Source: Escherichia coli
GTDB lineage: Bacteria; Pseudomonadota; Gammaproteobacteria; Enterobacterales; Enterobacteriaceae
DNA length: 64,000 bases
NCBI RefSeq assembly: GCF_029227855.1
Contig: NZ_CP074356.1
Reading direction: 5' to 3' (one strand)
Shown: positions 943 to 29,521 of the stretch, piece by piece
Numbering within the stretch: the first letter of the stretch is position 1
How the letters are laid out: every line of letters begins with the position of its first letter
Notes under the pieces: generated by a model
Database searches by the model: none
What the model was told of the DNA's origin: nothing
The model's input: the letters and a program-made list of their open reading frames with translations, nothing else
Position numbers and translations under genes: made by a program

Positions 943-1146
943 ATATGCAATAATTAATTGCACTGCCCCGCCAGCTATAATCGCGGGGCTTCGTTTTTCA
1001 GGGATAACAAAACCCGAAACTTCTTCCATCTGCCAGCAACAATGCCTCTTCCTCTATAGTGTTCTCCGGATCTACAGCATCCTGAAGTAGCGCGATGTAC
1101 TCACGGGCTATCTGCTTCAGAAAGTAAAAAGCAATGTTTTTAACCT

Positions 1147-1180
1147 ATAAAAATGGCGCTGCATTTGCGCCATTTTTATT
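1147..1180. terminator. Bidirectional intrinsic terminator between convergent ykgJ and yagU
   Basis: Hairpin AAATGGCGC-loop-GCGCCATTT flanked by A-run and T-run. Confidence 0.5.
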
Positions 1181-1190
1181 ATTCAATGCA

Positions 1191-1805: not shown

Positions 1806-2210
1806 ATCTACCCTGCTTGTACCATTATGTTATACACCTCTTCAGGAGTATTCATAAAATAAGACAAATGTAAAGAACTGTATTGTTTTGTATAATGCAA
1901 TGGTGACTAATCGCCAATGAATATAAGCACCATCATTTCTCCCTATTTTTATATTAAAAGTGACAACGATTTACAGGGTGATGCTGAGCTGACAATCACA
2001 GGTTTCCTTATCGGTTTTTGCATCGCACAACTAAAGCAATAAACTAGCTCCCGTCATCGGCGAATATGAATTAATTAGCCGGGCTCATAGCTGCATTCGC
2101 GTTTTAAGAATAATCCTCCTGCTCTCACCGACTATGCTTAACGTTTAAAAAAGCATCAGCACTCTCGCAACGCACTCTTATTTTCCCCTTTAGAATACCG
2201 GAGGCCTGGT

Positions 2211-2900
2211 ATGAGCAACCAAGGCGAATACCCCGAAGATAATCGGGTTGGGAAGCACGAGCCGCACGATTTTAGTTTGACCCGTCGCGATCTGATTAAA
2301 GTCAGCGCCGCAACGGCGGCGACCGCCGTGGTTTATCCTCATTCTACGCTTGCGGCAAGCGTTCCGGCAGCTACACCCGCGCCAGAGATAATGCCCCTGA
2401 CACTTAAGGTGAACGGCAAAACCGAGCAGTTGGACGTTGATACCCGAACCACGCTACTGGACGCTTTGCGTGAAAATCTGCATCTGATCGGTACCAAGAA
2501 AGGTTGCGATCACGGACAGTGCGGAGCCTGTACCGTGCTGGTCAATGGTCGAAGGCTTAATGCCTGCCTGACGCTTGCAGTCATGCATCAGGGGGCCGAG
2601 ATCACCACCATTGAAGGCCTGGGTTCACCAGACCATCTTCATCCTATGCAGGCGGCCTTTATCAGACATGATGGCTTCCAGTGCGGCTACTGCACCTCCG
2701 GGCAAATTTGCTCATCAGTAGCGGTGCTAAAAGAGATTCAGGACGGCATTCCCAGTCACGTCACGGTCGATTTGGTTTCCCCTCCAGAAAGAACTGCCGA
2801 TGAGATCCGTGAACGTATGAGCGGCAACATCTGTCGCTGTGGTGCATACGCTAACATCCTTGCCGCCATTGAAGACGCTGCGGGGGAGATAAAATCATGA
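2211..2900 (+). CDS. paoA: Periplasmic aldehyde oxidoreductase, 2Fe-2S ferredoxin subunit PaoA
   Basis: 229 aa; twin-arginine signal LTRRDLIK; two 2Fe-2S Cys clusters ([16 protein letters not shown]...CRCG). Confidence 0.9.
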
Positions 2901-3853
2901 AGGCGTTTACCTATGAACGTGTGAACACCCCTGCCGAGGCGGCACTTAGTGCTCAGCGCGTACCCGGCGCAAAATTTATCGCGGGCGGGACCAATCTGCT
3001 GGACCTGATGAAGCTGGAAATTGAAACGCCCACCCACCTTATCGATGTGAACGGGCTCGGGCTCGATAAGATTGAAGTGACCGACGCGGGTGGGCTGCGC
3101 ATCGGCGCACTGGTACGGAACACCGACCTGGCGGCTCACGAGCGCGTGCGTCGTGATTATGCGGTACTCTCCCGCGCCCTGCTCGCTGGCGCGTCTGGTC
3201 AGTTACGTAATCAGGCAACCACCGCAGGTAATCTGCTCCAGCGCACGCGCTGCCCCTATTTTTACGACACCAATCAGCCCTGCAATAAGCGCCTGCCCGG
3301 GAGCGGCTGCGCGGCACTTGAAGGCTTTAGCCGTCAGCACGCGGTGGTAGGCGTAAGCGAAGCCTGCATTGCCACCCATCCGAGCGATATGGCGGTCGCA
3401 ATGCGGTTGCTGGATGCGGTAGTGGAAACCATCACGCCGGAGGGAAAGACTCGCAGTATCACACTGGCTGATTTTTATCACCCTCCGGGAAAAACGCCGC
3501 ACATTGAAACCGCCCTGCTTCCCGGTGAGCTTATCGTTGCGGTGGCATTACCTCCGCCGCTCGGCGGAAAACATATCTACCGCAAGGTGCGCGATCGCGC
3601 CTCCTACGCCTTTGCCCTGGTATCGGTCGCGGCGATTATTCAGCCTGACGGCAGCGGGCGCGTCGCGCTGGGCGGAGTAGCACATAAGCCCTGGCGCATT
3701 GAGGCTGCGGATGCTCAGCTATCCCAGGGGGCGCAGGCCGTGTATGACGCGCTGTTCGCCAGCGCCCATCCCACCGCTGAAAACACCTTTAAACTCCTGT
3801 TGGCGAAGCGAACGCTTGCCTCCGTACTGGCTGAAGCGAGGGCACTGGCATGA
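2897..3853 (+). CDS. paoB: Periplasmic aldehyde oxidoreductase, FAD-binding subunit PaoB
   Basis: 318 aa; FAD-binding fold motif [11 protein letters not shown]; 4-nt overlap with paoA. Confidence 0.9.
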
Positions 3854-11103: not shown

Positions 11104-12024
11104 TTACGCCAGAACCCTCTCTAGCTTATTCACCGCCGCCACATACTTCGCCGGATTTTTATCTTTAAGCACCGCCAGATTGCGTTGCTTCCAGCGAATA
11201 GCCGGAAGATGCTGAATTTCAGGATAGCGATACCGCGACCAGTCAGGGCTGTTTTGCTTAAAACTGAGCAAGAACTCGCGATCCAGATCCGTAAGATGTG
11301 ACTTCAACGCCTGCGGCAGCAAAGTCGTTACTGACAGAAGCGATTCCAGCGACGTTTCCTGTTGCGTCATCCCTGAAAATTCCTGCGCGTACAACGTGGC
11401 GATCCGCTCTGTATCCCAGTTTGGAGCCAGCAACTCGGCGATGGGGCGGGGATGGCCTGCCAGATAACAAAGAAAACCGTCAAAGATCTCCCGCATCAGT
11501 CCCGGTTTCTCCAGCATATTCAGCACATCAAACAGATCGCGCGGGTGCTGACGATCAAGCGCAGCGCAGATTTTACCGCCATAAAGATCCGCCAGCGAGA
11601 CGACACTCATGGTGGTGAAGCCATACTCCATTTCCACACGTTCGCACACAGGCATTTCTGCCGGAGGCAACAACAGCCCGCGCCAGACCGGGCTAACCTC
11701 GATCTTAATCTTTGCATCAGCGGTATTCACAATGATGCGCTTTTCATCCGCTTTATTTTCCTGCCGAATCGCGGTGATCCCCGGTCTGCCGTTCAGCGAT
11801 GCAGTAATCCTCTTCAAAGCGTCGTTGATAGCCGCCAAATCAGTATCGCGATCCGCAAAGCTCTTGTACGCCAGATCAATATCCACCGACAGACGGGGAA
11901 AATCCTGCACAAACAAATTGATTGCGGTGCCGCCTTTCAACGCGAAACAGGACTCCTTCGCCACATACGGCAGAGCGGCCATCAACAGTTTGACCTGCCG
12001 GGCATAGCTATCACGCAGATCCAT
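11104..12024 (-). CDS. abiEii: AbiEii-type nucleotidyltransferase toxin (DUF1814 family)
   Basis: 306 aa; NTase motif GGTAINLF...RLSVDIDL; 14-nt overlap with upstream partner. Confidence 0.7.
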   Translation of the reverse strand: MDLRDSYARQVKLLMAALPYVAKESCFALKGGTAINLFVQDFPRLSVDIDLAYKSFADRDTDLAAINDALKRITASLNGRPGITAIRQENKADEKRIIVNTADAKIKIEVSPVWRGLLLPPAEMPVCERVEMEYGFTTMSVVSLADLYGGKICAALDRQHPRDLFDVLNMLEKPGLMREIFDGFLCYLAGHPRPIAELLAPNWDTERIATLYAQEFSGMTQQETSLESLLSVTTLLPQALKSHLTDLDREFLLSFKQNSPDWSRYRYPEIQHLPAIRWKQRNLAVLKDKNPAKYVAAVNKLERVLA

Positions 12025-12814
12025 CTTCGACTCCTTCCGGTTTAAATGCGCGTGGAACAGTAATTTGATAATCCGGCTCCAGCCAGCCGCCGGGTATGAT
12101 TTGCCGCTTTCCCGTACCTGTTTCTATACCGCTTTGATCAATATACTGAAAATAAGGGTGTCCATTACGCCGGGCAAGGTAAAGCATCACCCGGTTGGTT
12201 TTAACCGAATGGCTGGCGCGAAGCAGTGCCTGCAATTTGCGTGGGCTGAGAAGATTCAACCCCTGAAACAGAGCATCGGCATGTTCGAACGAGATTAACG
12301 AAGGAACGCCGCAGGCGATCTCATACGCGGCCAGTTCCGGAACACTGCCTGCTAACTGGCGGTCGCCAATTTTCAGTTCCGTAGTAAATGGCGTTACATC
12401 AGCGGTAAGGCCTGACGTATACAGCGTGACAAACGTTGCGGATTGTTCAAAGGCAGAAAACCATCCCGGCAGTTTGACGTAAGCCGGAAGCGCGAGCCAG
12501 ACCTGCGGCTTACCCTGTTCGGTATAGTGCGCATGACCCTGAAGCGCAAGGCTGGTTAGCCCCGCCACCCGAACAGGCTTTTCCCACTGCGATTGCAGGC
12601 AGTAAACCGCATCCACCCAATCCGGTTCACGACCCGTCCGGCAGTATACGCCGTGAGCGATCCGCCTGAGCCAGCCATTCTTCACATAGAGATAAGAGAG
12701 CTTACGATCTATGCCGTTGCGGGTAAGCCATGACTGGAGCAGCACCTGGCCGGGTAGCGTGTGCTGCATCAGCCAGTTTAGATAGTTTGGCAACTGTCGC
12801 CTCTGAATAGACAT
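12011..12814 (-). CDS. abiEi: AbiEi-type antitoxin / transcriptional regulator
   Basis: 267 aa; sits immediately upstream of and overlapping the NTase gene, the usual AbiE arrangement. Confidence 0.6.
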   Translation of the reverse strand: MSIQRRQLPNYLNWLMQHTLPGQVLLQSWLTRNGIDRKLSYLYVKNGWLRRIAHGVYCRTGREPDWVDAVYCLQSQWEKPVRVAGLTSLALQGHAHYTEQGKPQVWLALPAYVKLPGWFSAFEQSATFVTLYTSGLTADVTPFTTELKIGDRQLAGSVPELAAYEIACGVPSLISFEHADALFQGLNLLSPRKLQALLRASHSVKTNRVMLYLARRNGHPYFQYIDQSGIETGTGKRQIIPGGWLEPDYQITVPRAFKPEGVEDGSA

Positions 12815-13108
12815 TAGTACAAATATTTAAACCAGTGTAGATTCAGGGATACGCCACAGCAAGAAATAGTTTACTTATTCCTCATTTTGTCGACTAAAAA
12901 TCGACATTAAACAAAAAATTCAAACTTAATCACTTTCGGGAAAAATGTGACAAATATATGCTCGGACTGGTTGCGGGGAGCGTGTAACATGGATACAAAT
13001 CAAAATTATTGCCAGCCTCACTGATGGATTACTGGTGTCAAGAGCCCCCCTTCGGGCATGAAACGGCTGGCTAATTCTGTACAGACTGTAATCTAAGGAC
13101 GATAACGC

Positions 13109-14884
13109 ATGACATATCAGGCAATTTTCACTGGCTGGGATGATCTGACGATTGAAGACCTTCTGGTCGCTTACCGGAAAGCAAAAGCCGATAGCTTCTT
13201 TGAGAATACATTTCCTGTTGCTATCAAATTTGCCGAGTATGAGCAGGAATTACTTGAAAACCTGCAAAAACTCTTAGATCTTTTGCAGAGCGAAGATGGA
13301 TTCAGTAGCAATAAGAAGTTGATTGGCAAATTTCGTTTGTTACCGAAAAAATTAACCACAAAGAAAAAACATGAATCCCAAAATGGACACGTCCACTTTT
13401 CTAATCCTAAACGAGCAGCCGACCATTTATTTAATAATTTTGATCTGATACCAGAGTTTCGTATTATTGGTGACTTCCCGGTTGATAGTCACATTATCTC
13501 TGCACTATGGATTAACATGGTCGGGCATAAATTTGATGCCAGCTTAGATAACTGTTGCTATGGCGCGCGGCTAAAGCGTATTCGTAATGATGAATTATTT
13601 AGCGATGAGCAGGATAATCCATTCCATATCAGTGCCGTGGGTTCTTTTAGCCCCTACTTCCAGCCCTACCAAAAATGGCGTGGTGATGGCTTAAAAGCTA
13701 TACGTGACGAGTTGGAAAAAGATCGTGACATTATCGCCGCCTCACTGGATTTAAAAAGTTACTATCATTTTATTGATCCACTGGCTATAACCTCTGATGA
13801 TCTCTATAACACACTAAACATAAAACTGACTGAGGATGAAAAAGCGTTTACTGCACAGTTAGCAGTATTCTTAAAGCACTGGTCTGACGGCGCAGCGGCA
13901 TTTGGAAAGAAAATAGCGTACAAAACACCTGTTATTAATGGTGGTCTGGTCATTGGATTAACAGCCAGTCGGATCATTTCAAATATATTGCTACACCATT
14001 GGGATAAATTAGTCATTGAAAAACTATCACCAATTCACTACGGTCGTTATGTCGATGATATGTTCCTTGTAATACGCGATACAGGGACAATTACTAATAA
14101 TCACGAATTTATGTTATTGCTGCAAGATAGGCTTGGCAATGATTGCGTTTATTTGAAAAACGAGCAAAAACAAATATGGCAAATACAGCAGGGCGAGCAT
14201 TTCCAGGGTAAGACCACCATCCAGTTACAATCCGATAAGCAAAAACTTTTCGTGCTTCAAGGGAGGGCTGGAATAGACCTGCTCGACAGTATCGAAAAGG
14301 AGATCTACGAGCTTTCTAGTGAACACCGCTTGATGCCTTCACCGGATCAACTGGAACACTCCACCGCAGCTAAAGTCCTTTCCGCTGCCGGTAGTGTAGG
14401 TGAAAATGCCGATACTCTGCGCCGTGCGGATGGATTAACCATTCGTCGTTTGGGCTGGTCACTGCAATTACGCTACGTTGAAACACTGGCACGAGATCTG
14501 CCTCCAAGTGAATGGAAAGAACAGCGGGAAGAGTTTTATCAGTTTGCCTACAACCATATTCTTAGGGCTGATAATCTATTTGCACATTTTAGTTATCTGC
14601 CAAGGCTGCTTGGCTTTGCTATCAGTATGAATGAATGGCAGCACGCGGAAAAAATTGTACTTAAAGCTTACGAATCCATCAACCTGTTGGCATCGGTGAT
14701 TACTTCAGGTAAGGAAGTGAATATAAATGGTTGCAAAACTCGAGCAGTAAATGATCTTTGGCGCTGTATAAAAGGCACATTAAGCTGGCTATTTGTTGAT
14801 GCAGCGACACGATATTACAGTCCTGACAGATTATTTCTTGATAAACGTTCAAAGAAAGAAGAGTGCCTTGCGGATACATTTTAA
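13109..14884 (+). CDS. Reverse transcriptase (UG/Abi-type defence RT); likely the N-terminal part of an RT-nitrilase fusion interrupted at a T4 tract
   Basis: 591 aa; RT motifs in order: FRLLPKK (motif 1), LDLKSYYHFID (A), GGLVIGLTASRIISNIL (B'), YGRYVDDMFLV (C, YxDD); stop codon TAA begins inside TTTT at 14879-14882. Confidence 0.8.
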   Translation: MTYQAIFTGWDDLTIEDLLVAYRKAKADSFFENTFPVAIKFAEYEQELLENLQKLLDLLQSEDGFSSNKKLIGKFRLLPKKLTTKKKHESQNGHVHFSNPKRAADHLFNNFDLIPEFRIIGDFPVDSHIISALWINMVGHKFDASLDNCCYGARLKRIRNDELFSDEQDNPFHISAVGSFSPYFQPYQKWRGDGLKAIRDELEKDRDIIAASLDLKSYYHFIDPLAITSDDLYNTLNIKLTEDEKAFTAQLAVFLKHWSDGAAAFGKKIAYKTPVINGGLVIGLTASRIISNILLHHWDKLVIEKLSPIHYGRYVDDMFLVIRDTGTITNNHEFMLLLQDRLGNDCVYLKNEQKQIWQIQQGEHFQGKTTIQLQSDKQKLFVLQGRAGIDLLDSIEKEIYELSSEHRLMPSPDQLEHSTAAKVLSAAGSVGENADTLRRADGLTIRRLGWSLQLRYVETLARDLPPSEWKEQREEFYQFAYNHILRADNLFAHFSYLPRLLGFAISMNEWQHAEKIVLKAYESINLLASVITSGKEVNINGCKTRAVNDLWRCIKGTLSWLFVDAATRYYSPDRLFLDKRSKKEECLADTF

Positions 14885-16316
14885 TCATATTTCACAAAGT
14901 CTGACGAATCTAAAGGATTTACTGGATCTTCGCTTTGATTCAGCAGATTTTTATTTAAAAGCGCCATTGGTAGCTCGAGCTGATTTAGCAAAGGAACCTT
15001 ATAAACAGATCGTAAAGAGTCAGTCGGCAGAAAAACTTGTTAATCAGCGTGATAGTAAAAAAGAAGTTAAAATACTGAAATTAATGAGCGACTCATCGCT
15101 TATTGATATTGACGTTATTAAGCTATTTTTGAAATCAACCAAGAATACCCGACTGGAAAAAGTGGCTAAAGGAAATCGTAAGAACGAAAGTTACCTACCT
15201 TACATTTTCCCTACACGTCCTTTAACACCCGCTGAAATATCAGAACTGGCCCCCGAATGTGTTGGATTACCCTCCACATCCGACAAAAAACCAGATGAGA
15301 GACCGTCCACCATTTGGGCAAAATATACTCAAGCATTACGCGGAGTATGGATCAAACCGACGTTGCTAGCATCGGAGCAGGACTCAGATGAAGCGACAAA
15401 AAAAGCTCGGCCTAAGAAATTCATTCATATTGGCACAGACAGGAAACATAAAGTTGTCGTTGCGCTAACCAGCATTAAAACAGAGGAGGACGACTGGGCT
15501 AAAATGGCCTGCAATAAATCTAACTTGTCCCGTTCAAGGTACCAGCGGATTTCTGAACTGGTTAATGCAACATTGAAACTATCTCCTAAACCTGATTATG
15601 TTTTATTCCCTGAGCTTTCAATCCCGTTACGCTGGGTTAACAGTATTGCTGATCGTTTGAGTTCGGCGGGTATCAGTCTAATTGCGGGAACAGAATACCG
15701 CCACTTAGACGATAATCAACTGAAGAGTGAGGCCGTACTTGTCCTTTCAGATAACAGACTCGGCTATCCAGCGAGTGTCAAAATATGGCAACCCAAGCTG
15801 GAACCCGCCGTAGGTGAAGATGAGGCATTATTTTCAACTTATGGTAAGTCTTGGGATTCGACACTTAATGTTAAACAACGTAAGCCGGTATATATTCATC
15901 ACGGCGTCAATTTTGGCGTTATGATTTGCTCTGAACTCCAGAATAGTAAAGCGAGGATCCGTTTTCAGGGCGCACTCGATGCATTAATGGTATTGAGCTG
16001 GAATAAAGATCTAGATACGTTTGCATCGTTGATTGAATCAGCAGCGCTGGATATTCATGCCTATACTATTTTAGTGAATAACCGAAAATACGGCGATAGT
16101 CGCGTACGTTCCCCGGCAAAAGAACCCTTTATGCGTGATATTGCTCGTGTGAAGGGCGGTGATAATGACTTTGTGGTCGCTGCAACGCTGGATATCGACT
16201 CGTTAAGGGCATTTCAGAGCAGGGCAAAACGCTGGCCTAAAGGCGGCGATAAATTCAAACCGTTACCTGAAGGATTCCAGTTGGCAAAGAACCGCAAAAA
16301 GCTACCGCCAAAATAA
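14793..16316 (+). CDS. Nitrilase / CN-hydrolase domain protein; probable C-terminal part of the RT-nitrilase protein (frame +1 relative to the RT ORF)
   Basis: 507 aa as called (TTG start, no convincing RBS); nitrilase-like triad context YVLFPELSIP (Glu), VKIWQPK (Lys), GVMICSELQN (Cys); overlaps RT ORF by 92 nt. Confidence 0.75.
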   Translation: MLMQRHDITVLTDYFLINVQRKKSALRIHFNHISQSLTNLKDLLDLRFDSADFYLKAPLVARADLAKEPYKQIVKSQSAEKLVNQRDSKKEVKILKLMSDSSLIDIDVIKLFLKSTKNTRLEKVAKGNRKNESYLPYIFPTRPLTPAEISELAPECVGLPSTSDKKPDERPSTIWAKYTQALRGVWIKPTLLASEQDSDEATKKARPKKFIHIGTDRKHKVVVALTSIKTEEDDWAKMACNKSNLSRSRYQRISELVNATLKLSPKPDYVLFPELSIPLRWVNSIADRLSSAGISLIAGTEYRHLDDNQLKSEAVLVLSDNRLGYPASVKIWQPKLEPAVGEDEALFSTYGKSWDSTLNVKQRKPVYIHHGVNFGVMICSELQNSKARIRFQGALDALMVLSWNKDLDTFASLIESAALDIHAYTILVNNRKYGDSRVRSPAKEPFMRDIARVKGGDNDFVVAATLDIDSLRAFQSRAKRWPKGGDKFKPLPEGFQLAKNRKKLPPK

Positions 16317-16478
16317 GAAACTGATTTTCGCTATTAATAATCAGGGTATTTTTGCGTGAGATGTCGGTAAACATGATGTAGCCCTTGCCACTCATGACCA
16401 ATCGCAGTATCTTTCTCCCGCGCCTGCAAAATCAGGCGTCGGGATTAGCCTCCTGAAGAAATCTTATCGGCGACACAT

Positions 16479-16500
16479 GACGCGCCAGCGTCTTTTTTTG
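16479..16500 (+). terminator. Possible intrinsic terminator downstream of the nitrilase ORF
   Basis: Short GC hairpin GACGC-GCCA-GCGTC followed by T7. Confidence 0.3.
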
Positions 16501-16662
16501 TGTTGTTCGCACGGTTACATCTCAATGGTGGGCCGGGCGGGGGCGTCGCAAGACGCGCCAGTGTCCGATAAGGCTGGTAAGGCTAACCCTGCCCGGTTCC
16601 ACCACCCGCGAGATTAGCCTCTCCGGTGGTGGCTTGAACACCCACTTATCGGAGGTTGCCCT

Positions 16663-17133
16663 ATGGCTACAATCCTCACCACTGACAGCGATTTACTCGA
16701 TCTATTGACCGTCCCCTTCAATGCCACCACGGATTTCACTGTCCTTGCTGACTACTGCGCCCGCTTTGCCGAAACCCTGATTGAAACCGACGATCCAGCG
16801 CTACGACTGGCGCTCTGCGGGCGGCTTCACGCGGCTCTTGCGCTACTGCAACCCACACTACACGACCCCATCCCACCGCATCTTACCGAAAGCCTGACCG
16901 TGGATACCCTTCCCGCCACACCAGAGCACTTTATTTCCGAACCTGATTCCTTGTGCGAATACTGCCTCGCACTACTCCAGCTTCTGCTGGAACGTCCGGC
17001 GGAACCAAAAATGGAGCAAACCCTGACCGGGCTGCTGTGTGAGCTGGTCTGGTATTTCACGGAAGGACTCAAAGCCCCACGCTGGCTGCGTACCGCCGAC
17101 GGCGTAAAATTTATCAGCGAGGTGGCCGCATGA
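16663..17133 (+). CDS. Hypothetical protein, no recognisable domain
   Basis: 156 aa ORF with a good RBS (GGAGG); stop overlaps the start of the Ner-like fragment. Confidence 0.5.
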
Positions 17134-17270
17134 TGCAACAGGACTGGCATTCCGCCGACATTATTGCGGTGCTGAAAAAGCGGGGAACGCCTCTGGCGGC
17201 ACAGAGAAAAACTCATTGCGGAAGCGCTGTAAATATCGCCAGAAATCATCTGGCCTTCAAGGTACTTTGA
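17130..17270 (+). pseudogene. Ner/Nlp-like DNA-binding protein gene, internally deleted and frameshifted
   Basis: N-terminus [24 protein letters not shown] is Ner/Nlp-like; similarity then breaks, and a second Ner-like stretch (REKLIAEAL) appears in another frame. Confidence 0.5.
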
Positions 17271-17311
17271 TAGCAAAGGCAAGCAGGCTGGTTCAGTCCA
17301 GTGTTTCTCTT

Positions 17312-17410
17312 CTTGCATTTTCAGAAATGGGAGGCTGGGAGTCTATCGAAATGGTTCGTCGATATGCTCACCTCGCGCCTAATCACCTTACCGAACACGC
17401 ACGGCAAATA
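17312..17410 (+). pseudogene. C-terminal remnant of a tyrosine integrase gene
   Basis: Peptide [30 protein letters not shown] matches the conserved C-terminal region around the catalytic Tyr (RYAHL) of phage integrases; no upstream integrase sequence present. Confidence 0.55.
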
Positions 17411-17496
17411 GACTCAGTCCTGAACCCATCGGTCCCAAATTTGTCCCAGTCAAAAAATAAGGAAGGTACTAATGATGTGTAACTTATTGATTTTAA

Positions 17497-17572
17497 TGGT
17501 GCCGATAAGAGGAGTCGAACCTCCGACCTTCGCATTACGAATGCGCTGCTCTACCAACTGAGCTATATCGGC
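17497..17572 (-). tRNA. thrW: tRNA-Thr, anticodon CGU
   Basis: 76-nt cloverleaf GCCGATATAGCTCAGTTGGTAGAGCAGCGCATTCGTAATGCGAAGGTCGGAGGTTCGACTCCTCTTATCGGCACCA with encoded CCA; anticodon loop CATTCGTAATG. Confidence 0.9.
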
Positions 17573-23950: not shown

Positions 23951-25408
23951 GTGTCTGAACTGTCTCAATTATCTCCACAGCCGCTGTGGGATATTTTTGC
24001 CAAAATCTGTTCTATTCCTCACCCGTCCTATCATGAAGAGCAACTCGCTGAATACATTGTTGGTTGGGCAAAAGAGAAAGGTTTCCATGTCGAACGCGAT
24101 CAGGTAGGTAATATCCTGATTCGTAAACCTGCTACCGCAGGTATGGAAAATCGTAAACCAGTCGTCTTGCAGGCCCACCTCGATATGGTGCCGCAGAAAA
24201 ATAACGACACCGTGCATGACTTCACTAAAGATCCTATCCAGCCTTATATTGATGGCGAATGGGTTAAAGCGCGCGGCACCACGCTGGGTGCGGATAACGG
24301 CATTGGTATGGCGTCTGCGCTGGCGGTTCTGGCTGACGAAAACGTGGTTCACGGCCCGCTGGAAGTGCTGCTGACCATGACCGAAGAAGCCGGTATGGAT
24401 GGTGCTTTTGGCTTACAGAGCAACTGGTTGCAGGCTGATATTCTGATTAACACCGACTCCGAAGAGGAAGGTGAAATCTACATGGGTTGCGCGGGGGGTA
24501 TCGACTTCACCTCCAACCTGCATTTAGATCGTGAAGCGGTTCCAGCTGGTTTTGAAACCTTCAAGTTAACCTTAAAAGGCCTGAAAGGCGGTCACTCCGG
24601 CGGTGAAATCCACGTTGGCCTGGGTAATGCCAACAAACTGCTGGTGCGCTTCCTGGCGGGTCATGCAGAAGAGCTGGACCTGCGCCTTATCGATTTCAAC
24701 GGTGGCACACTGCGTAACGCCATCCCGCGTGAAGCCTTTGCGACCATTGCTGTCGCAGCTGATAAAGTCGACGCCCTGAAATCTCTGGTGAATACCTATC
24801 AGGAGATCCTGAAAAACGAGCTGGCAGAGAAAGAGAAAAATCTGGCATTGCTGCTGGACTCTGTTGCGAACGATAAAGCTGCCCTGATTGCGAAATCTCG
24901 CGATACCTTTATTCGTCTGCTGAACGCCACCCCGAACGGTGTGATCCGCAATTCCGATGTGGCAAAAGGTGTGGTGGAAACCTCCCTGAACGTCGGTGTG
25001 GTGACCATGACTGACAATAACGTAGAAATTCACTGCCTGATCCGTTCTCTGATCGACAGCGGTAAAGACTACGTGGTGAGCATGCTGGATTCGCTGGGTA
25101 AACTGGCTGGCGCGAAAACCGAAGCGAAAGGCGCATATCCTGGCTGGCAGCCGGACGCTAATTCTCCGGTGATGCATCTGGTACGTGAAACTTATCAGCG
25201 TCTGTTCAACAAGACGCCGAACATCCAGATTATCCACGCGGGCCTGGAATGTGGTCTGTTCAAAAAACCGTATCCGGAAATGGACATGGTTTCTATCGGG
25301 CCAACAATCACCGGTCCACACTCTCCGGATGAGCAAGTTCACATCGAAAGCGTAGGTCATTACTGGACACTGCTGACTGAGCTGCTGAAAGAAATTCCGG
25401 CGAAGTAA
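23951..25408 (+). CDS. pepD: Cytosol non-specific dipeptidase (aminoacyl-histidine dipeptidase)
   Basis: 485 aa M20-family peptidase; GTG start. Confidence 0.9.
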   Translation: MSELSQLSPQPLWDIFAKICSIPHPSYHEEQLAEYIVGWAKEKGFHVERDQVGNILIRKPATAGMENRKPVVLQAHLDMVPQKNNDTVHDFTKDPIQPYIDGEWVKARGTTLGADNGIGMASALAVLADENVVHGPLEVLLTMTEEAGMDGAFGLQSNWLQADILINTDSEEEGEIYMGCAGGIDFTSNLHLDREAVPAGFETFKLTLKGLKGGHSGGEIHVGLGNANKLLVRFLAGHAEELDLRLIDFNGGTLRNAIPREAFATIAVAADKVDALKSLVNTYQEILKNELAEKEKNLALLLDSVANDKAALIAKSRDTFIRLLNATPNGVIRNSDVAKGVVETSLNVGVVTMTDNNVEIHCLIRSLIDSGKDYVVSMLDSLGKLAGAKTEAKGAYPGWQPDANSPVMHLVRETYQRLFNKTPNIQIIHAGLECGLFKKPYPEMDMVSIGPTITGPHSPDEQVHIESVGHYWTLLTELLKEIPAK

Positions 25409-25420
25409 TTATTTGATTTG

Positions 25421-25452
25421 CTGCCGGATGGCGTTTAATCGCCTTCCGGCAG
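25421..25452. terminator. REP-like hairpin, probable pepD terminator
   Basis: CTGCCGGATGGCG...CGCCTTCCGGCAG palindrome immediately after the pepD stop. Confidence 0.45.
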
Positions 25453-25464
25453 TTTCATCCTTCA

Positions 25465-25853
25465 TTATCCTTCGATAAAAGCCATCCCTGTAAATGTCCG
25501 TCTCGGGTTGCCACGTTCAATCTGGTGATGGAACATTCGCCGCCGCGATTTCAGCACCGCGCTATTTTCCTGTTGCTGTTGTTCCAGCGTCCAGGCAATC
25601 AGCAATCGCGCCAGCCGCTTGTTAGCATGCCCAGAAACAAGTTTTTGCGCCCATGATGAGGCCGATACGGACTCGGACAAATCCACTGAATAGTGCCGCA
25701 CCAACTTTCGCTTAATGCCCATGCGTTATCGCCATCCAGAGAAATCAGCGCCGAACGCAGCGTGTCAGAGTAGCGGCCCGTTTCTGTTTCCAGCACCGTT
25801 ACCGCGACGTCTTGCCGGGTAAAAACGACCAACAGAGAATAACGCTGCGCCAA
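25465..25853 (-). pseudogene. prfH: Release-factor-homologue gene prfH, 5'-truncated and frameshifted
   Basis: Two overlapping ORF fragments in different frames, the downstream one ending in a release-factor-like C-terminus; no continuous frame; same location as K-12 prfH. Confidence 0.5.
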
Positions 25854-26019
25854 TCGGGTAGCCGCGTCCGGGGTGTAAATCTGGCATCCCTACTACGCGC
25901 TGCATGTTGGGTAAATTTGCCGTGGTGTGTAATTGTTGAATCGCTAAACTCTCGATCCACAGGTCATCAGATGCGATGGTAAATACCGCATCGGATAAGG
26001 GACGAATATATTTGCCCAT
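25813..26019 (-). pseudogene. ykfJ: RtcB-like RNA ligase gene remnant (N-terminal ~70 codons only)
   Basis: Fragment ...[19 protein letters not shown] resembles the RtcB N-terminal metal-binding region; frame then diverges. Confidence 0.5.
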
Positions 26020-26263
26020 GTATCATTCCATTTATACTCGTCATACTTCAAGTTGCATGTACTGCGACTCGAATTATTTAGAGTATATAAATATAAAAAT
26101 CAGGAAATGGCAGACGAATCCAGGGCAAGAAAAAAGAATTAATCCTGGAAAGGTCTGCAAAGAGTCATTGATAAAGGATTTGTCATGATTTACCTCCTTG
26201 CAGTTTGTGGAATAAGAAAACGCGCACATACCAGGCGGGCGTTATTTTCATTGCAAGCTGGAT

Positions 26264-26716
26264 TTAATGTTGCGGTTTATATCGCATAGAAAAATTAGTA
26301 AACCACGCTCCCCTGCATTCAACGCGCTGCTGCTTAACTGTCTGAAAACCATAACGTTCAAAAAAGGGTTTTGCGGTTATGCTGGCGTCCACTGTAAGTT
26401 CGGATTCAGACTTAATCAAAGGTTTTAACAAAGCGCTGGCAACCCCACGGCGGGTGTATTCAGGGTCAACAAATAACATATCGATATAGTGTTCAACGCA
26501 GGTAATAAAGCCGACCAGTTTTGCATTAATGACTGCAACCCGCACTTGTGATTTCGCGAGTTTCTCCTTCCAGCGAGATTCGTCAATCTGCGCCCAGGCG
26601 GCAATTTGTTGTGGTGAATAATGCTGACTGGCGGTCATCGTAACCGCTCTAATGAAAATAGCGCATAGTTGCTGAAAATCGCAAGGCTGATAATCTCTTA
26701 TTTGTATGTTATTCAT
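26264..26716 (-). CDS. yafP: GNAT-family N-acetyltransferase YafP
   Basis: 150 aa; last gene of the dinB-yafNOP operon. Confidence 0.8.
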   Translation of the reverse strand: MNNIQIRDYQPCDFQQLCAIFIRAVTMTASQHYSPQQIAAWAQIDESRWKEKLAKSQVRVAVINAKLVGFITCVEHYIDMLFVDPEYTRRGVASALLKPLIKSESELTVDASITAKPFFERYGFQTVKQQRVECRGAWFTNFSMRYKPQH

Positions 26717-26725
26717 AATATAAAT

Positions 26726-27124
26726 TCAAAAACGCATGCGAAACGCTTCTGCCATTTTTCCAATTTTATGCATTTGGTTGTTATCTCGAGCCAGTTTATG
26801 AGGTTCAGGCTTCAGAATGGCAATGAGCAACCATGCTTGCTCATCAAACGCCCCCTGACAATATACCAAATGCGCTTCGTCATTCGTTCTGCTGAATTGG
26901 CGCAACTGTGGCGGAAATGGATTATTCACATTTGCCAGATGAATATGAGCAACTCGCTCAAATTTGATTAATGGCCAGGTAAACAAGTCGTCGTAGAGTG
27001 CATCGCGACCAAATATATCTGGCAAAATACCGTCACGCTTATAGGAAATAAAATCCGCCGTTAACGCATCAAGTTCCTCTGCTGTAAGTTGCAGGCGAAT
27101 AAGTTTTGTTTTGAATACCCGCAT
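26726..27124 (-). CDS. yafO: Ribosome-dependent mRNA interferase toxin YafO
   Basis: 132 aa; follows yafN in the dinB operon. Confidence 0.8.
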   Translation of the reverse strand: MRVFKTKLIRLQLTAEELDALTADFISYKRDGILPDIFGRDALYDDLFTWPLIKFERVAHIHLANVNNPFPPQLRQFSRTNDEAHLVYCQGAFDEQAWLLIAILKPEPHKLARDNNQMHKIGKMAEAFRMRF

Positions 27125-27126
27125 CC

Positions 27127-27420
27127 TTATTCCTTAAAGTCATTGAAATCATCATCCGTCATATCATTAAGATATTGTTCAGCGCGGCGTGTAATTTCCT
27201 CTAATCTTGCAGCACTCGGACGGAAGCGCGCCTTTATGGGCTTTTTCTCCTCTTGTTCAGCAAGCATGTCCATTAACGCTTCGAATGCGCTGGCACTTAA
27301 GAGATATCCTGCGGGGCGATTATTAGAAAGAACCGCAACCGGTTGATCAATAAAGTATTTAGCTGGGTTTTTACGTAACTCAGTGATATTGACCGATTTT
27401 TCAGCGAGAATTCGATGCAT
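27127..27420 (-). CDS. yafN: Antitoxin YafN (Phd/YefM-like)
   Basis: 97 aa; immediately upstream of yafO. Confidence 0.8.
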   Translation of the reverse strand: MHRILAEKSVNITELRKNPAKYFIDQPVAVLSNNRPAGYLLSASAFEALMDMLAEQEEKKPIKARFRPSAARLEEITRRAEQYLNDMTDDDFNDFKE

Positions 27421-28597: not shown

Positions 28598-29521
28598 CTA
28601 GCGCGTTCGCTGTGAAAGCACCTGCTGCTTATCCAGCTTTTGCACCAGCGGCTGCACCACTTTATCCCCATGCTGACCAAAGTATTGATACAGCGTATCG
28701 GACGCACTTTTGGTCAGCACCATAATCTCAATGCGTCGGTTGCCCGCGCTTTGCGGATTTTTCGCGTCCAGCAGCATCTGGTCCGCCATCGCGCTCACCT
28801 GCATCACTTTATCTTCCGGCATTCCGGCCTCTTCCAGCACCCGACGAGCCGAAAGCGCGCGATCGCCCGAAAGGTTCCAGTTGTTGTAGATATTGTTTTT
28901 GTAGGCCATCGCATCGGTATGCCCTGTAATAATAATTTTGTTATCGAGCGAGTCGAACACTGGCGCGAGCTCCACCAGCAAAGTTTTAAAGAACGGCATA
29001 ATCTGTGCGCTGCCGCGTTCAAACATATTGCGGTTCTGGTCATCTTTAATCAGCACGCGCAATCCCTGGGGAACAATCTCCATCTCCAGATTCGCTTCCA
29101 TATGTGCATCACGGGCAATGGTGTTGATACTGGTCGCCAGCTCGCCAAGCTCAGTAGCGGATTTCTTCTTCAGCAGCGCCGTTTTCTCATTGACGTCACG
29201 CGCTTTTTTCTCCGTCTCTTCCGGCACCGCCACGGTGGCAGGTTTTGGCGGATGAGACGGGCTGATTTTATTTAACGGCGACAACCCGCCGCCATTGAAA
29301 ATCGACTGCCCGTGCAGCGCGGCGATAATGCTTTCACGCTCGGATTTACTGACGCTGTTGACAATCCACAGCGTCATAAACAGCGCCATCATTGCCAAAG
29401 TAAAGTCGGCGAACGCCACCTTCCACGCCCCGCCGTGGTGCCCGGCATGATTCTTTTTGATCTGCCGCCGGACGATGGTGGTTTTTGCCCCACGCTCGCG
29501 GCGGTTGCCCGTCTTTCTCAT
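28598..29521 (-). CDS. lafU: Lateral flagellar motor stator protein LafU (MotB-like, OmpA-type C-terminal domain); upstream GTG at 29554 is an alternative start
   Basis: TM helix followed by a peptidoglycan-binding OmpA-like domain; directly downstream of the MotA-like gene. Confidence 0.8.
   Translation of the reverse strand: MRKTGNRRERGAKTTIVRRQIKKNHAGHHGGAWKVAFADFTLAMMALFMTLWIVNSVSKSERESIIAALHGQSIFNGGGLSPLNKISPSHPPKPATVAVPEETEKKARDVNEKTALLKKKSATELGELATSINTIARDAHMEANLEMEIVPQGLRVLIKDDQNRNMFERGSAQIMPFFKTLLVELAPVFDSLDNKIIITGHTDAMAYKNNIYNNWNLSGDRALSARRVLEEAGMPEDKVMQVSAMADQMLLDAKNPQSAGNRRIEIMVLTKSASDTLYQYFGQHGDKVVQPLVQKLDKQQVLSQRTR

Follow-up and report, generated by a model that had tools for sequence, protein, structure and literature searches.

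We found that the pepD-yafP interval of a 64-kb stretch of Escherichia coli DNA (the whole stretch is called the window here) almost certainly holds a non-functional remnant of the chromosomal rtcB2-prfH ribosome rescue/repair operon, destroyed in two deletion steps. What is left on the minus strand, at 25465-26019, is an rtcB2 remnant plus two out-of-frame pieces of prfH (Table 1), and these bounds are exact: the rtcB2 ATG has its A at 26019 and the prfH stop codon ends at 25465 (both minus strand). The gene order around it is frsA, gpt, pepD, rtcB2-prfH remnant, yafP, yafO, yafN, dinB and lafU.

A preliminary description of this DNA had proposed a decayed rtcB-prfH module between pepD and yafP, and alignment to intact loci bore this out. 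In agreement, the PGAP annotation of strain 7/2 and of JNEC-KY178 has each of the two remnants as a pseudogene ("frameshifted; incomplete"), and its label for prfH in genomes with the window-type allele reads "frameshifted; incomplete; missing N-terminus". JNEC-KY178 (NZ_AP045174.1) is 99.96% identical to the window across 64 kb; strain 7/2 is 100% identical over 25300-26350, and its match to the window spans 1-29366 only (99.2% identity).

Table 1. Features of the rtcB2-prfH remnant and its surroundings (window coordinates)
Feature	Position	Strand	Description
pepD	23951-25408	+	flank of the rtcB2-prfH remnant
GC-rich palindrome	25420-25453	.	pepD/prfH convergent intergenic spacer
prfH 3' fragment	25465-25626	-	prfH nt ~450-615, residues 151-204, TAA stop 25465-25467
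Delta2 junction	25627-25630	-	retained 4-bp GCAT microhomology, gene orientation
prfH middle fragment	25631-25812	-	prfH nt 92-280, PrfH residues ~32-93
Out-of-frame tail of the 84-aa ORF	25765-25814	-	prfH DNA in the wrong frame until TGA 25765-25767
Delta1 junction	25813-25821	-	retained copy of a 9-bp imperfect direct repeat, TACCCGGCA in gene orientation
rtcB2 5' remnant	25815-26019	-	start codon 26019-26017, codons 1-68
yafP-rtcB2 intergenic region	26020-26263	-	former operon leader or promoter region, without the 72-bp ERIC-like insert
yafP	26264-26716	-	flank of the rtcB2-prfH remnant

Retained pieces of rtcB2 and prfH

The preliminary description had counted about 70 surviving rtcB codons, and we found the first 66-69 codons of rtcB2 to be retained. 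They lie in an ORF of 84 aa at 25765-26019(-), which encodes RtcB2 residues 1-69 followed by 15-16 out-of-frame codons. By BLASTP against intact RtcB2, 67 of 69 residues were identical over residues 1-69 (E 6e-48), and the match ends at residue 69. Consistently, the RtcB-family model NF007153 (NCBIfam) matched at positions 1-69 of 379 (E 1.7e-30). Its score of 106.2 bits lies below the cutoff of 407, as do those for TIGR03073 (99.6 vs 271.8) and for the N-terminal match to Pfam PF01139 (23.4 vs 27). At the nucleotide level, the remnant differs from three intact alleles at 1-7 of 200 positions, with the single difference being to UPEC132. Given this protein identity, these few nucleotide differences and the pepD/yafP flanks in common with intact alleles, the remnant is, on its sequence and position, orthologous to rtcB2. 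It retains 18% of the length of RtcB2 and none of the active site; the catalytic H294, present in intact EC38 RtcB2, falls within a 1027-bp deletion.

Two further observations concern this remnant. At window 26023, a G-to-A change that is specific to the window-type allele turns an upstream in-frame ATG-GAA-TGG (the annotated ykfJ start of K-12) into ATG-GAA-TGA, so that the remnant ORF can be opened only from the ATG at 26019, where rtcB2 truly starts in intact alleles. Also, the PGAP note on the RtcB pseudogene (bounds 25813-26019; loci L001 and L009) says that mutations compromise drug-inducible mexXY expression; this wording appears to come from a Pseudomonas aeruginosa model and is unlikely to be meaningful for E. 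coli.

For prfH, the middle fragment has no start codon, is in the +1 frame relative to the rtcB remnant and is carried by the ORF at 25599-25853(-). The 3' fragment is carried by the ORF at 25465-25722(-), whose protein ends in GMAFIEG before the stop, and is frame-shifted relative to the middle fragment. The PrfH model TIGR03072 identified the two pieces at positions 31-94 (E 2.1e-24, 86.2 bits) and 143-200 (E 1.7e-15, 57.1 bits) of its 200 positions; both scores are below the cutoff of 166.65, and intact EC38 PrfH scores 328.8 bits. Pfam gave no match to either prfH fragment, and the identification came from NCBIfam. Hence, the frameshifted prfH fragments previously described are present as two pieces in different frames.

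In total, PrfH has lost its start codon, residues 1-31 and residues 94-150, including the GGQ motif (Q122). PGGQ corresponds to residues 119-122 of intact PrfH, and the GGQ motif is missing from the window allele. The remnant has also changed beyond the deletions (W91L, K to T and Q to R). On re-inspection, no continuous reading frame was found across 25465-26019(-), which is divided into three ORF pieces in different frames.

Two deletions separate the window from intact alleles

We compared the window to the intact alleles of EC38 (RtcB2 of 379 aa, PrfH of 204 aa), UPEC132 and CFSAN061770, and to K-12-type alleles. Relative to the intact alleles, the window has two clean gaps, of 1027 bp and 169 bp, and its retained parts are 95-99% identical in nucleotide sequence. 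In the alignment with an intact allele, identity outside the gaps was 95-98%. The alignment to an intact rtcB-prfH locus that had been suggested earlier thus places both losses exactly.

The first deletion (Delta1) corresponds to EC38 locus 2190-3216 and reaches from rtcB2 codon ~69 to prfH codon ~31; missing are the remainder of rtcB2 from about nt 201-208 onward and prfH nt 1-91. About 82% of RtcB2 is gone, and rtcB2 codon ~68 is fused out of frame to prfH codon ~31. The ATGA stop/start overlap of rtcB2 and prfH (EC38 locus 2277-2280) lies inside Delta1 and is therefore lost in the window. The truncation junction was said to be visible in the sequence, and it is, as the retained copy of the 9-bp imperfect direct repeat; in intact alleles, this repeat reads TA(C/T)CCGGCA on the left and T(A/G)CCCGACA on the right. 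As the alignment reads, a single deletion across the rtcB2/prfH boundary explains both the truncated rtcB and the missing prfH 5' end.

The second deletion (Delta2) corresponds to EC38 locus 1832-2000, that is, prfH nt 281-449 or PrfH codons 94-150, and shifts the frame since 169 mod 3 = 1. Hence, the internal frame change that had been reported for prfH is real, and its cause is this 169-bp deletion rather than a small indel. By alignment, Delta2 is absent from K-12-type alleles, and we found no published description of it.

Since prfH is a release-factor homologue and prfB uses a programmed frameshift, we considered whether the prfH discontinuity is instead programmed recoding (by analogy to the +1 frameshift of prfB), with the full-length protein still being made; ARFA is mentioned in PMC1586002. 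This idea has virtually no chance of being right. The frame change coincides with the 169-bp gap that removes GGQ, each intact prfH allele has one unbroken 204-aa ORF, and the start codon and first 31 codons of prfH are missing as well. Programmed frameshifting in prfH was ruled out by the alignment with intact alleles.

Both junctions lie in short direct repeats, which is the classical signature of replication slippage or illegitimate recombination; hence, we infer that the deletions arose by one of these two mechanisms at short repeats. In the order that we propose, the 1027-bp deletion between the 9-bp imperfect direct repeats would have come first and would have fused rtcB2 to prfH out of frame, with loss of the catalytic His294, the prfH start and the translational-coupling overlap. 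The 169-bp deletion at the 4-bp microhomology would have followed in a subset of Delta1 lineages, taking the GGQ loop and shifting the frame.

Neighbourhood of the remnant

The sole structured element in the pepD-yafP interval is the palindrome at 25420-25453, with fold energies of -27.1 kcal/mol (+) and -25.1 kcal/mol (-) and z-scores of -7.2 and -6.5, respectively. It is invariant across the aligned alleles (intact and K-12-type) and is probably a bidirectional terminator or a REP-like element. A promoter scan of window 25300-26400 found no sigma-70 consensus site, and a terminator scan of the same range gave two terminator-like hits that were not above shuffled sequence. Across the whole window, the Rfam scan placed no family in or beside the rtcB2-prfH remnant.

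On the other side of yafP, the window, K-12 and 7/2 have a yafN-yafO toxin-antitoxin pair ahead of dinB (window 26726-27420). The pair is missing from EC38, CV839-06 and UPEC132, in which yafP abuts and overlaps dinB. The yafO of CFSAN061770 has an internal stop. Hence, yafN-yafO is a second presence/absence polymorphism adjoining the rtcB2-prfH remnant.

Frequency of the deleted alleles in E. coli

We measured how often each allele occurs in 5,426 complete E. coli genomes, which are a biased collection and not a natural population. The locus is present in 5418 of the 5426. As a proxy for alleles intact across Delta1, we used the segment over the rtcB2/prfH overlap (EC38 locus 2137-2305, mostly inside Delta1), which was at least 80% covered in 2713/5426 genomes. 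The Delta2 segment was at least 80% covered in 4723/5426 genomes and had any match in 4756; it is missing from about 660 complete genomes. The shares in this collection are therefore ~50% intact, ~37% Delta1 only and ~12% Delta1+Delta2. Junction-spanning queries were unusable for these counts because pieces less than ~500 bp apart are joined, so that intact and deleted alleles both score full coverage. The overlap segment occurs at most at 2 places per genome, with total matches about the size of the intact class, and second rtcB2-prfH copies are rare.

A check sample of 60 records, drawn at regular intervals from the ranked list, was in line with the genome-wide shares: 30 intact, 23 Delta1-only, 6 Delta1+Delta2 and 1 without the locus. 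The intact records had interval spans of 2248, 2192 and ~3014 bp, plus one partial match. Delta1-only alleles were split between those with a 72-bp ERIC-like insert, as in K-12 and O157:H7 (13 records, span 1293-1294 bp), and those without it, such as the B strain T7Express (10 records, 1221-1224 bp). Likewise, Delta1+Delta2 alleles occurred without the insert (the window type; 3 records, 1051-1052 bp) and with it (3 records, 1125 bp). None of the 60 sampled records was of a Delta2-only class.

In K-12- and O157:H7-type alleles, the ERIC-like element (which contains GAGTGAATCGCCAGGAGCTTACATAAGTAAGTGACTGGGGTGAACG) is found in the spacer that separates yafP from the rtcB remnant (locus L003, 2440-2511). 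Its insertion point corresponds to window 26069|26070, and neither the window nor the examined intact alleles have the element. All four combinations of ERIC presence or absence with Delta2 presence or absence exist, which indicates recombination or repeated gain and loss.

Some intact alleles (span ~3014 bp; locus L005, 1618-2425) have two extra genes between prfH and pepD, for a metal-dependent hydrolase (169 aa) and a 93-aa hypothetical protein. These may be accessory to the rtcB2-prfH operon in those lineages.

These counts also bear on whether the deletions are assembly or sequencing artefacts, a reading that we consider to have a negligible probability. The window-type allele occurs at at least 99% identity in 275 independent complete-genome records, which excludes an artefact; the Delta2 segment is missing from the hundreds of genomes counted above, and strains from Sweden, Japan and China that were sequenced independently have the same junctions.

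Origin of the deletions

Three variants of the Delta1 junction 9-mer were found: TACCCGGCA in the window and K-12, TATCCGGCA in CV839-06, and TACCCGACA in most Delta1-only alleles, O157:H7 and the B strain. This diversity raises the possibility that repeated slippage at the junction repeats produced Delta1 and/or Delta2 several times (parallel loss). Such repeated origin, if true, would account for the three junction variants and for the finding of Delta2, with one and the same junction, in two backgrounds separated by differences at 18-19 of 778 sites. It would also fit the rtcB remnant, which up to 6 bp from the junction is UPEC132-like in the window and EC38-like in CV839-06, and the CV839-type right flank, which is identical to that of Delta1-only alleles.

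Nevertheless, we regard repeated origin as unlikely. All 11 of the 11 aligned Delta1 alleles have one yafP-rtcB intergenic haplotype (0-5 differences), which differs from each of the three intact alleles at 7-10 positions. The sampled Delta1 alleles are 97.2-100% identical to the window, compared to 95.3-96.8% for the sampled intact alleles. The window departs from UPEC132 in its right flank (8-9 differences in ~185 bp); hence, the window allele is a mosaic rather than the product of a fresh deletion in the UPEC132 haplotype. For Delta2, it is a priori unlikely that exactly the same 169 bp would be lost again at a 4-bp microhomology, and the check sample held no Delta2-only allele.

The simplest reading would be that Delta1 arose once and that short tracts from intact or other donors were later recombined in, with the heterology boundary as their limit. 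That recurrent Delta1 or Delta2 reflects a parallel, possibly selected loss of an anti-colicin ribosome-repair module is a shade more doubtful than repeated origin itself. If the loss were selected, the module may be costly, or a truncated PrfH with GGQ may be mildly harmful.

Function of the remnant

Whereas the intact ATCC 25922 operon shields cells from colicin E3, the truncated operon of BW25113 gives no such protection (Maviza et al. 2022, PMC9223846). Because the window allele is more degraded than the K-12 truncation, which is itself non-functional (PMC9223846), the locus is read as dead, and we infer loss of function in the doubly deleted allele. By analogy, a window-type strain would be expected to be sensitive to colicin E3 like K-12/BW25113.

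The 84-aa ORF still begins with its ATG and is uninterrupted in every Delta1 allele examined, so on its reading frame a small product may be made. We therefore weighed whether the remnants have been co-opted, with the 84-aa ORF (K-12 ykfJ) or the prfH fragments acting as new small proteins or RNA; the persistence of remnant DNA in about half of sequenced genomes fits this idea too. Co-option is nonetheless very improbable, given that the 84-aa fragment spans just 69 of the 379 positions of the RtcB model, that neither a sigma-70-like promoter nor an Rfam family was found in the region, and that decay of the remnant is continuing (Delta2, W91L, K to T, Q to R). In addition, knockouts of the truncated BW25113 genes had no effect, with colicin E3 exposure as the sole condition tested (PMC9223846).

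With the locus taken as a dead remnant, the expected sensitivity to colicin-E3-type ribotoxins of a strain that lacks chromosomal RtcB2-PrfH defence bears on bacterial competition in the gut. With neither GGQ nor a ligase domain, the window allele is a cleaner negative control than the K-12 truncation. The intact, Delta1 and Delta1+Delta2 classes are usable as a genotyping marker. Practical consequences are limited, and knowledge of the RtcB2-PrfH system is unchanged.

Other features of the window

Window 28598-64000 has a complete Flag-2 (lateral flagella) cluster, with lafU, motA/lafT, lafA, fliE-J, fliM-R, flhB and flhA. Flag-2 is lost in K-12 and in strain 7/2, from which the window departs at 29366; in JNEC-KY178, flhB is annotated as frameshifted. 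Hence, the window strain keeps Flag-2 alongside the most decayed rtcB2-prfH allele.

A small island lies at 11104-17572, beside a tRNA-Thr gene (17500-17572). It contains an AbiEi/AbiEii toxin-antitoxin pair (11104-12814), a reverse transcriptase-nitrilase gene, an ash-family ORF and an integrase remnant, with Rfam matches to isrK and C4 antisense RNAs at 16420-16498 and 16521-16609, and it looks like a degraded P4-like integrative element with defence genes. The reverse transcriptase, at 13109-16316, is of the defence type and fused to a nitrilase (PADLOC RT_UG5-nitrilase, DRT). In strain 7/2, this protein has 1069 aa (1034 bits); in the window, it is split into ORFs of 591 aa and 507 aa, with 2 T lost from a T-run at about 14879. 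The split is probably another pseudogene or else a homopolymer sequencing error.

At 985-1185(-), between ykgJ and yagU, there is an Rfam match to the sRNA family IS009 (187.8 bits).

Comparison with known systems

PrfH enters the A site of the damaged ribosome, where its GGQ motif hydrolyses peptidyl-tRNA; it frees the nascent peptide when the decoding centre of the ribosome has been cleaved by ColE3-CT or CdiA-CT(ECL) (PMC9304027). RtcB2 then religates the cleaved 16S rRNA (Tian et al. 2022, PMC9304027). The catalytic residues mutated in that functional study were PrfH Q122 and RtcB2 H294. The intact RtcB2-PrfH operon (ATCC 25922, CFT073, EC38) is orthologous to the remnant and has its locus in common with the window; in comparison, the window lost RtcB2 residues ~69-379, PrfH residues 1-31 and 94-150, and the ATGA overlap.

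The canonical RtcB (RtcB1, of the rtcBA/rtcR RNA-repair operon) has its superfamily in common with the remnant (PF01139). However, it is a different paralogue at a different locus, and the remnant matches the PrfH-coupled models NF007153 and TIGR03073. RtcB2 clusters apart from most RtcBs and may be functionally distinct (PMC9304027).

For K-12 and O157:H7, a deletion of ~1000 nt was described previously, with the genes of CFT073, 042 and UTI89 intact (Baranov et al. 2006, PMC1586002). Tian et al. (2022, PMC9304027) presume that neither K-12 gene is active, and the MG1655 annotation gives ykfJ (b0235) and prfH (b0236) as pseudogenes. These K-12 genes have the position yafP, ykfJ, prfH, pepD in common with the window, as well as the 1027-bp gap, the TACCCGGCA junction and rtcB2 codons 1-68. 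In contrast, K-12 retains the GGQ region, which the window lost through the additional 169-bp deletion; K-12 has the 72-bp ERIC-like insert upstream of the rtcB remnant and the window does not; and the Flag-2 cluster next door is kept by the window but not by K-12. The two alleles differ at 17 of 778 comparable sites. Hence, Delta1 is the K-12 ykfJ/prfH deletion, which is already known and whose pseudogene pair is already annotated, and Delta2 is a modest lineage variant that is found in about one in eight complete genomes.
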